From Acidobacteriota bacterium (GTDB taxonomy: Bacteria; Acidobacteriota; UBA6911; RPQK01; JAJDTT01): 64,000 nucleotides of DNA. The notes under the pieces were generated by a model. The model was not told where the DNA came from. It made no database searches and worked only from the letters and a program-made list of their open reading frames with translations. Shown piece after piece: positions 31,111-32,454 of this stretch. The stretch's first letter is position 1, and the number at the start of each line of letters is the position of its first letter. The stretch is taken from positions 4,320,001 to 4,384,000 of the forward strand of contig CBDCJH010000002.1 in the NCBI GenBank assembly GCA_965217775.1, given 5' to 3'. The position numbers and the translations under genes were made by a program.

Positions 31111-32454
31111 CTACATCCTCTCGAGAATGGCCTCGCCGAAGCCGGAGCAGGAGAGCTTGGTCACGTCCTCCCGGCCCTCGCGGTGCATGAGCCGGGCCAG
31201 GTCGTAGGTGACGTGGCCGTCCAAGATGGCCCGTTCCATGCCGGCGGTGATCAGATCCGCGGCCTCGCTCCACTGCAGGTGGTTGAGCATCATCACCGCC
31301 GAGAGGATGAGGGAACCGGGATTGACCTTGTCCATCCCCGTGTACTTGGGCGCCGTGCCGTGGGTGGCCTCGAACAGGGCCAGGTCGTCGGACATGTTGG
31401 CGCCCGGTCCCAGGCCCAGGCCTCCCACCAGGGCGATGGCGGCGTCCGAGAGGTAGTCGCCGTTCAGGTTGGGCAGGGCGAAGACGCTGTACTCGTCGGG
31501 CCGGGTCTGGATCTGCTGGAAGACGGAATCGGCGATCCGATCCTTGACCAGGAATTTCCCGTCCGGCATCTTGCCCCCCAACTCGTCCCAGAGCCGCTTC
31601 TCGGTGACGGTGTCGTCACCGAATTCCTCCGCGGCCAGCTCGTAGCCCCACTTGGCGAAGGAGCCCTCGGTGAACTTCATGATGTTGCCCTTGTGGACCA
31701 GGGTCACCGACGGCAGTTTCTGGTCCCGGGCCCAGTTCAGGGCCTTGCGGACGATGTTCCGGGTCCCGGTGGTGGAGATGGGCTTGATGCCGATGCCCGA
31801 GTCGGCCCGGATGCTGCGGCCGTCCTTTTCCCGGATCAGATCGATGATGGCCTGCGCCATCTCGCTACCCTGCTCGAAGTCGTAGCCGGCGTAGACGTCC
31901 TCGGTGTTCTCGCGAAAGATGACGAAGTTCACCTTGTCGGCGTACTTGTTGGGAGAGGGGACCCCTTGGAAATAGCGGACCGGCCGCACGCAGGCATAGA
32001 GTTCCAGATGTTGCCGGAAACGGACGTTGATGGAACGGAAGCGTTCGGTCACCCCGTCTTCTCGGCCGCATTTGTCGCAACTGCCGGCGTGGTATTGCTG
32101 GTGGGCGCAGTGGAGGCAGACGTGGGTCTCCTCCCCCACCGGGGTGGTGAAGGGGCCCTTGATGGCGACGCGAAGGTGCCGGATCGCCTCCACCGTCTCG
32201 TCGGGAAACTCGCTGCCGTAGTGGTGCAGTCCCTCCAGGCCGGCATAGAGGGGACACCAGGAGATGCTGCGGCTGCCGCCGTAGGCTCGCTGCACCGCCC
32301 CATCCACAACGTTGCGCATCACCGGGGTGATGTCCAGACCGATCCCGTCGCCCCGCAGGACGCCGATGATAGGGTTGTCGCCGACGACGAGGTGGCCGTC
32401 CCGATATTCGATCAGGTCCCCCGCCGGGATCTTCACTGCCTTGAACTGAGCCAC
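31111..32454 (-). CDS. icd: NADP-dependent isocitrate dehydrogenase (homodimeric type) with a Cys4 insert
   Basis: GDGIG, IKGPFTTPVG, RSIN, FRENTED, HKGNIMKFTEG, NLNGDYLSD, FEATHGTAPKY, TYDLAR. Confidence 0.95.
   Translation of the reverse strand: MAQFKAVKIPAGDLIEYRDGHLVVGDNPIIGVLRGDGIGLDITPVMRNVVDGAVQRAYGGSRSISWCPLYAGLEGLHHYGSEFPDETVEAIRHLRVAIKGPFTTPVGEETHVCLHCAHQQYHAGSCDKCGREDGVTERFRSINVRFRQHLELYACVRPVRYFQGVPSPNKYADKVNFVIFRENTEDVYAGYDFEQGSEMAQAIIDLIREKDGRSIRADSGIGIKPISTTGTRNIVRKALNWARDQKLPSVTLVHKGNIMKFTEGSFAKWGYELAAEEFGDDTVTEKRLWDELGGKMPDGKFLVKDRIADSVFQQIQTRPDEYSVFALPNLNGDYLSDAAIALVGGLGLGPGANMSDDLALFEATHGTAPKYTGMDKVNPGSLILSAVMMLNHLQWSEAADLITAGMERAILDGHVTYDLARLMHREGREDVTKLSCSGFGEAILERM

Follow-up and report, generated by a model that had tools for sequence, protein, structure and literature searches.

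A conserved four-cysteine, zinc-ribbon-like insert at the phosphorylation loop of isocitrate dehydrogenase in uncultured bacteria

The window analyzed here is a 64,000-nucleotide stretch of an Acidobacteriota genome (GCA_965217775.1, contig CBDCJH010000002.1, positions 4,320,001 to 4,384,000). Its icd gene (31111..32454, minus strand, GTG start) encodes a 447-aa NADP-dependent isocitrate dehydrogenase (Icd) of the subfamily-I homodimeric type, in which a 31-residue module with four cysteines, the type A insert (residues 108-138, 32041..32133, minus strand), replaces a Gly-Gly linker. The module is probably a zinc ribbon, as judged from its Cys pattern and predicted fold. Few enzymes of central metabolism have been studied as thoroughly as Icd, and phosphorylation in its Ser113 loop is the classic example of control at an active site. 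The conserved metal-site-like module sits exactly at this loop and is without precedent in the PDB. This form of Icd is shared by many uncultured bacteria and is apparently undescribed; no description of an Icd with a Cys-rich insert was found in the text reached by full-text literature searches, and neither these searches nor the PDB yielded an already characterized clade with the insert. The accessible part of PMC3521221 names the loop as variable and describes no Cys-rich insert there.

The context of the insert in the protein is TTPVG-EETHVCLHCAHQQYHAGSCDKCGREDGVTER-FRSINV. The initial annotation had placed a 31-residue insert with CxxC-x9-CxxC spacing between these flanks, and both the insert and the spacing agree with the codons of the DNA, where inspection by eye located the Cys codons at 32116-18, 32107-09, 32077-79 and 32068-70 and the Ser141 codon at 32032-34. 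Three histidines had been counted in the insert; there are actually four (residues 111, 115, 118 and 122). The first knuckle is C113-L-H-C116 (32107..32118, minus strand), whose cysteines are invariant in both forms of the insert described below. The second is C126-D-K-C129 (32068..32079, minus strand), which is followed by G130 and is conserved in the alignments and in the DNA copies. Ser141 (32032..32034, minus strand), the equivalent of E. coli Ser113, lies three residues after the insert, which upholds the earlier placement of a metal-site-like Cys4 module at this position. In the alignment to chain 1ai2, G107 pairs with chain residue 108 and F139 with 111, so that the insert occupies the position of two glycines in E. 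coli. A helix beginning with the isocitrate-binding Ser follows the loop, and the insertion is at the tip of this loop. Known as the "phosphorylation loop", it is a variable region of dimeric isocitrate dehydrogenases, and S113 is phosphorylated by AceK (PMC3521221).

All of the Icd chains shown in a PDB search align to the query in two pieces (3-107 and 139-447) that omit residues 108-138, and no solved chain covers the insert. The HMMER match breaks at 107/139 against every solved Icd shown and also against the Pfam and NCBIfam models; therefore, the module is a true insertion relative to the Icd family. Canonical Icds have a two-residue linker at this site in the 73 parsed loci of one locus set and in 67 of the 80 loci of a second (type B region) set. 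Since the same 31-aa insert is found in 120 of 121 proteins and in 77 of 78 parsed genome loci, it is neither a chance feature nor an assembly artefact. An intein or mobile-element remnant was dropped on the basis of the size of the insert and its lack of splicing motifs, as read from the sequence. Other kinds of insert at the site were also rejected, since the odd-length tblastn rows from Rubrobacter, Chloroflexota, Photobacterium and cyanobacteria are canonical two-residue linkers.

The protein is a subfamily I NADP-Icd on every testable feature and is predicted to be an active enzyme. It matches Pfam Iso_dh in two stretches with 249 bits and scores 512.4 bits on NF005425, the NCBIfam NADP-Icd equivalog, which is above the cut-off of 490. 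The TIGR00183 score of 543.4 bits falls just short of the cut-off of 567.3, since the match is broken in two by the insert. The effect on annotation is that the insert drops the protein below one curated equivalog cut-off, and some records are named generically. The source records of P0021, P0028, P0053 and P0116 say only "isocitrate/isopropylmalate family dehydrogenase", and such generic public names fit a TIGR00183 score lowered below its cut-off by the insert.

The identity to E. coli-type Icd chains in the PDB is 51-55%. The predicted structure (AlphaFold) of the full Icd has a mean predicted local distance difference test score (pLDDT) of 93.5 and a predicted template modeling score (pTM) of 0.92, and it superposes on E. 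coli Icd 1cw7 with a Z of 55.6 and a root-mean-square deviation (rmsd) of 1.9 A over 401 aligned residues. S141, N143, R147 and R157 are invariant in insert-bearing and insert-free rows alike. The motifs FRENTED, VYAG, HKGNIMK, KDRIAD and NLNGDYLSD are present in the alignment to 1ai2 and contain the other isocitrate and metal ligands; the full set is presumably equivalent to S113, N115, R119, R129, R153, Y160, K230, D283, D307 and D311 in E. coli numbering. The NADP-specificity motifs ATHGTAPKY, VNPGS and VTYDLAR are also present; the residues concerned are presumably K344, Y345, V351, Y391 and R395 of the E. coli enzyme. The checked catalytic and NADP motifs therefore read as intact, as the initial annotation had stated.

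The predicted homodimer has an interface score (ipSAE) of 0.88, whereas the best of its three controls scored 0.00. The calibration set had 20 of 30 solved pairs and 1 of 23 single chains at or above the mark, and this calibration is only rough here because the prediction used a custom alignment and two riding zinc ions. At least 96% of the contacts agree among the dimer runs and the partner pLDDT is at least 92; the pass may reflect memory of, or likeness to, solved Icd dimers. The predicted contacts are those of the canonical clasp and helix bundle; residue 106 is among them but none of residues 108-138 is, with the residues left unnamed by the predictor being uncertain, and the insert was therefore rejected as a dimer contact.

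The genome of the window (6.43 Mb, two contigs, 97.9% complete, 7.5% contamination) has four Iso_dh genes. Since the other three score as LeuB, a tartrate-dehydrogenase-like protein and a second isopropylmalate dehydrogenase type, and since no monomeric isocitrate dehydrogenase was found in the genome, the insert-bearing gene is its only recognizable Icd, and a second canonical Icd alongside it was rejected. The insert-bearing Icd is also single copy in two other carriers. The gene would encode the cell's working NADP-isocitrate dehydrogenase. The genome has no PF06315 (AceK) match, for which an E. coli control was positive, and no PF00463 (isocitrate lyase) match. Of the aceK and aceAB genes whose presence had been in question, only malate synthase is represented, by one gene without isocitrate lyase. 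The proposal that the insert might block or replace AceK regulation is therefore moot. Three features of the AceK-regulated (enterobacterial) type are lacking: aceK, the glyoxylate bypass and the short accessible loop. AceK-regulated Icds have such a loop before Ser113, whereas here a 31-residue module, folded in the model, takes the place of Gly-Gly. The module would be unrelated to AceK.

The conservation of the insert was assessed with a protein search that scored residues 85-160 only (E <= 0.001) and found 1204 protein clusters among 1264 candidates. The 31-residue insert with four Cys is present in 120 of 121 proteins (120 listed clusters and the query, P0001-P0121); P0066 is the one that does not fit the pattern. 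A 50%-identity library reduced the insert clade to one full-length representative (P0122) and four fragments, next to 44 other parsable representatives with the two-residue linker; 101 further representatives did not fit the pattern and one match was spurious. P0122 is 68% identical to the query overall and shares 22 of its 31 insert residues, as counted from the strings. A survey of contigs from one genome per species yielded 131 stretches that code for a relative of the insert region. The best 80 of the 131, with DNA patterns derived from the query insert, were kept, and all 80 are titled as metagenome-assembled genomes (MAGs). Their labels include Acidobacteriota (with Holophagae, Thermoanaerobaculia and Aminicenantes), Gemmatimonadota, Krumholzibacteriota, Eisenbacteria, Fibrobacterota, Aegiribacteria and Myxococcota, with one label each for Planctomycetota and Gammaproteobacteria. 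There is no cultured carrier among those listed.

The insert is 31 aa long in 77 of the 78 parsed genome loci and 30 aa in the other. The four Cys are invariant in 120/120 type A proteins and in 77/77 loci with 31 aa, so that the cysteines are conserved in all carriers examined. E108, E109, T110, V112, C113, L114, C116, Q119, Q120, G124, C126, C129, D133, G134, V135 and R138 are invariant in the 77 inserts, although these type A counts are inflated, the loci having been found with patterns taken from the query insert. Each Cys is kept in 79 of 79 distinct DNA copies, with both TGC and TGT in use. The codons for invariant residues range from two to six in these copies (four for V112, five for L114 and six for R138), and all pairs over the 31 insert codons give 29389 synonymous versus 17029 non-synonymous differences. 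Since the invariant residues use synonymous codons, the conservation of the insert indicates purifying selection and not mere recency. The mean majority fraction is 0.87 for the insert versus 0.85 for the rest of the protein, suggesting similar rates of evolution for the insert and the remainder of the enzyme.

Type A proteins also have about 41 clade-specific substitutions beyond the insert. One further type A-specific feature is the insertion E426-G427-R428 (31171..31179, minus strand) just after the NADP 2'-phosphate helix with the VTYDLAR motif; it is a gap in 16/16 type B rows and 31/32 insert-free rows. Residue 136 (32047-32049) is a frequent fifth Cys beside the site (Cys in 34/77 loci, Thr in 32/77). 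In four loci the stop-to-stop frame with the insert-bearing icd is long: 1191 aa in L164 (a Myxococcota-labelled MAG), 592 aa in L010, 653 aa in L011 and 607 aa in L128. These may be upstream open frame in high-GC DNA, or fusions.

A second form of the insert, type B, helps to define the metal ligands. It was seen in L012 (labelled Cloacimonadota, 58% identical), which has a 35-residue insert with CxxC-x14-CxxC spacing. A region search for this form gave 120 of 120 listed proteins with 35 residues and four Cys at fixed positions, labelled Cloacimonetes/Cloacimonadota, Marinimicrobia, KSB1, Armatimonadota and Bacteroidetes, and it occurs in 13 genome loci, all MAGs. Type B is located at the same site as type A and shares the frame V-C-L-x-C-A..Q...C-x-x-C...[VI]T.R-F-R-S with its four invariant Cys, but it has an x14 instead of an x9 spacer, no His and one residue fewer after the second knuckle, and it lacks the F102, I142 and EGR insertion of type A. 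G107, V112, C113, L114, C116, Q120, C126, C129, R138 and R140 are invariant in the joint alignment. Type B has other residues at the four His positions of type A. Since type B keeps the Cys but none of the His, the predicted metal ligands are the four Cys, pointing to a Cys4 site, and a Cys/His or His-assisted site is unlikely.

The relationship between the two forms was examined in trees made with the insert columns removed. The type A carriers form one clade (support 100) on a stem of 0.34 changes per site in a FastTree of 103 rows. An IQ-TREE quick tree of 65 rows also has type A as one clade (100) and type B as another (99), with the two separated only by unstarred branches. When A and B were constrained together, the tree was 19.6 log-likelihood units better than the free search (p-AU 0.759). 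A single insertion event for both forms is therefore compatible with the data and is not rejected, and the shared frames V-C-L-x-C-A..Q and [VI]-T-x-R-F-R-S argue for A/B homology.

The insert is found in 11 of 401 sampled genomes of the Acidobacteriota, which include all six of the window's genus, neither of two from the sister genus in the same family, and five from three other families. The Icd of the sister genus is canonical and 60-62% identical over residues 139-447; a full-length identity of 81% is reached by the Icd of a carrier in another family. The closest named relatives of the window's Icd are Acidobacteriota MAGs with 97% identity. Since phylum labels interleave within the type A clade (FastTree) and the sister genus has a canonical Icd, the pattern implies lateral spread, apparently as xenologous replacement of a core gene. 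The variant enzyme would have moved among uncultured bacteria of several phyla, displacing the canonical Icd.

The module is confidently folded in the predictions. Its pLDDT is about 88-94 in the full model, with short strands at 111-113, 119-120 and 135-137, and the module folded alone, with an alignment of 27 type A and 11 type B modules, has a pLDDT of 81.5 and the same strands. Five core positions are common to both insert types and rare in insert-free Icds: L73, L76, F139, L302 and T372. L73 is present in 100% of A rows, 94% of B rows and none of 32 insert-free rows (Glu in 25/32), and L76 in 94% of A, 94% of B and 3% of insert-free rows. In the full model both are on helix 72-79 of the large domain (32218..32241, minus strand), the putative docking surface of the module, and T372 follows the NADP-binding K370/Y371. 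A surface helix on which Leu has taken the place of a charged residue in both types is the picture expected if the module docks there.

We consider it somewhat probable that the module serves as a structural Zn(Cys)4 ribbon, anchored on the large domain, and that it stiffens the Ser141 segment and forms a wall of the cleft beside the cofactor. This reading is favored because of the L73/L76 pattern, the high confidence of the model and the absence of the module from the dimer interface. One ancestral event would have put a small autonomous Cys4 zinc ribbon (a rubredoxin-like knuckle) into the tip of the phosphorylation loop, with the TTPVG strand on one side and the substrate-binding R-S-x-N helix on the other. 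A single structural Zn2+ would most likely be bound by the four Cys, and the module would pack through L73 and L76 on helix 72-79. At the rim of the active-site cleft, next to the NADP-binding loop, it would then form a rigid flap, with the Ser141 segment held in place and not left as a free glycine hinge.

Several points weigh against the structural ribbon. Zinc binding and docking on helix 72-79 are both predictions. Foldseek of the module against the PDB has a best E of 0.62 and no row with E <= 0.001, a lack of significance that is expected because the module is only 35 residues long. No Pfam zinc-finger family matches the 35-aa module (best E 0.13 and 0.17, zf-dskA_traR 2.9). The non-ligand residues E108, E109, T110, Q119, Q120, D133, G134 and R138 are very strongly conserved in type A, which exceeds the need of a bare structural knuckle and could mark a functional surface. 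The free maximum-likelihood trees also leave A and B unjoined. An Atlas feature search of the module gave no usable match.

The best surviving alternative is a redox or metal switch, in which oxidation or metal loss unfolds the Zn-Cys4 module, shifts the Ser141 helix and changes Icd activity. This would be an AceK-independent, post-translational control of tricarboxylic acid (TCA) flux and NADPH supply, and we regard it as unlikely but deserving of serious attention. Zn-Cys4 redox switches are found in other proteins such as Hsp33 and RsrA. The module is three residues from the substrate-binding Ser, where a conformational change would matter most, and in type A further cysteines are found at position 67 (most rows) and position 136. 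However, the presence of C67 does not co-vary with that of C136 and type B has neither, so that a conserved C67-C136 disulfide tethering the module was rejected and there is no conserved second thiol pair. There is also no thioredoxin-like or regulatory gene conserved next to icd; no family recurs in more than 8 of 71 carrier loci, a count that is rough because the open reading frame (ORF) caller was misled in 23 of the 71 by the long antisense ORFs of high-GC DNA. The neighbors in the window are a PIN-domain protein, a class IV aminotransferase and a TPR protein. The putatively buried hydrophobic docking residues and the high pLDDT suggest a fixed element instead. The metal or thiol-redox control of flux raised in the initial annotation thus finds neither a conserved extra Cys pair nor a conserved neighboring redox or regulatory gene in the 71 loci. 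A more specific version is decidedly unlikely: the module would be a zinc- or oxidant-sensitive switch in the phosphorylation loop, doing by metal or thiol chemistry the job that AceK does at Ser113, and would gate the substrate-binding helix and so set TCA flux and NADPH output post-translationally.

It is rather doubtful that the ribbon is a docking module for another macromolecule, such as a regulator, a neighboring TCA enzyme or a higher-order Icd assembly. Contacts with proteins or nucleic acids are a frequent role of zinc ribbons, type A has many invariant residues of the surface type, and the module is unused in the canonical dimer interface and so free for other binding. However, no neighboring gene is conserved in the same 71 loci with the same rough caller, a conserved partner gene next door was rejected on this count, and no partner candidate was identified. 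The A and B surfaces differ nearly everywhere except at the Cys, V112, L114, Q120 and R138; therefore, one shared partner is disfavored.

Catalytic tuning is quite improbable. Here R138 and Q120 of the flap would reach the cofactor or substrate pocket and affect the kinetics, the affinity for the cofactor or how oxidative decarboxylation is balanced against reductive carboxylation. Both residues are invariant in the two insert types, the insert is accompanied in both by T372, which adjoins the NADP-binding K370/Y371, and the short type A insertion adjoins the 2'-phosphate helix. However, the canonical ligands are all present already, and there is no link to the type of 2-oxoglutarate enzyme. 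The window's genome has no SucA (2-oxoglutarate dehydrogenase E1) over the cut-off and has two alpha subunits of OAFO-type 2-oxoacid:acceptor oxidoreductases; the coordinates for the 2-oxoacid oxidoreductase and malate synthase observation are C2:1275862-1277565, C2:502284-504032 and C2:184839-185495. SucA is over the cut-off in 4/5 other carriers versus 1/5 non-carrying relatives of the order. A link of the insert to a ferredoxin-type, SucA-less TCA cycle was therefore rejected, and the absence of SucA appears to be a trait of the lineage, not of the insert. An iron-binding, rubredoxin-like center that transfers electrons has almost no likelihood: the two CxxC knuckles, the Gly after the second and the rubredoxin-like LapB domain as top fold row are in its favor, but the module has no Pfam rubredoxin match, is shorter than rubredoxin and lacks its aromatic core (as read from the sequence), and NADP is already the hydride acceptor, so that a one-electron carrier is not needed.

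Just downstream of icd is the gene for the PIN-domain protein (30474-30995, plus strand; PF01850, E 5e-11), whose product is probably a VapC-type toxin. The TPR/ankyrin protein (34714-36063, plus strand) has 449 aa with N-terminal ankyrin repeats and a long TPR_12/TPR_10 array. The ORFs at 33784-34713 (plus strand) and 36042-38972 (minus strand) are without a Pfam match. An ORF of 494 aa (31102-32586, plus strand) is antisense to the whole of icd, lacks support from any family and resembles the long antisense frames that are common in high-GC DNA.

The enzyme can be compared with solved Icds from E. coli (1ai2, 1cw7 and 3icd), A. fulgidus (2iv0) and B. pseudomallei (3dms). It has the same fold, motifs and predicted canonical dimer, and differs in the 31 Cys4 residues in place of Gly-Gly and in the C-terminal insertion. 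Unlike the AceK-regulated E. coli Icd, no AceK partner was found in its genome. If the module is regulatory, it would be a new mode of control for a branch point of the TCA cycle.

Among known modules, the top Foldseek rows are all Cys4 zinc modules, with E-values that are not significant. The rubredoxin-like C-terminal domain of LapB (4zlh/7wzb) has a TMq of 0.72-0.75 and an rmsd of 1.1-1.3 A over 32 columns, and LapB, ribosomal eL40, Rpb12 (RNA polymerase II) and Nob1 together span a TMq of 0.65-0.75 and an rmsd of 1.1-2.1 A over 32-35 columns. The insert has two CxxC knuckles like these modules, on what would be short beta-hairpins. It differs from them as an internal insertion in a metabolic enzyme, with non-significant E-values and no Pfam match.

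The zinc LID of Gram-positive adenylate kinase (1zin, 4qbi and 5g3y) has 30% identity to the module over 37 columns with an E of about 1-2.3. Adenylate kinase belongs to another enzyme family, homology to its LID is not shown, and the LID is mobile while the Icd module would appear to be docked. The zinc in the LID is structural. In both cases a small Cys4 knuckle module is located at the active-site edge of a nucleotide-dependent enzyme that has relatives without the metal site. If the Icd module is only structural, it would parallel the LID of adenylate kinase with its zinc and would mark the lateral spread of a core enzyme.

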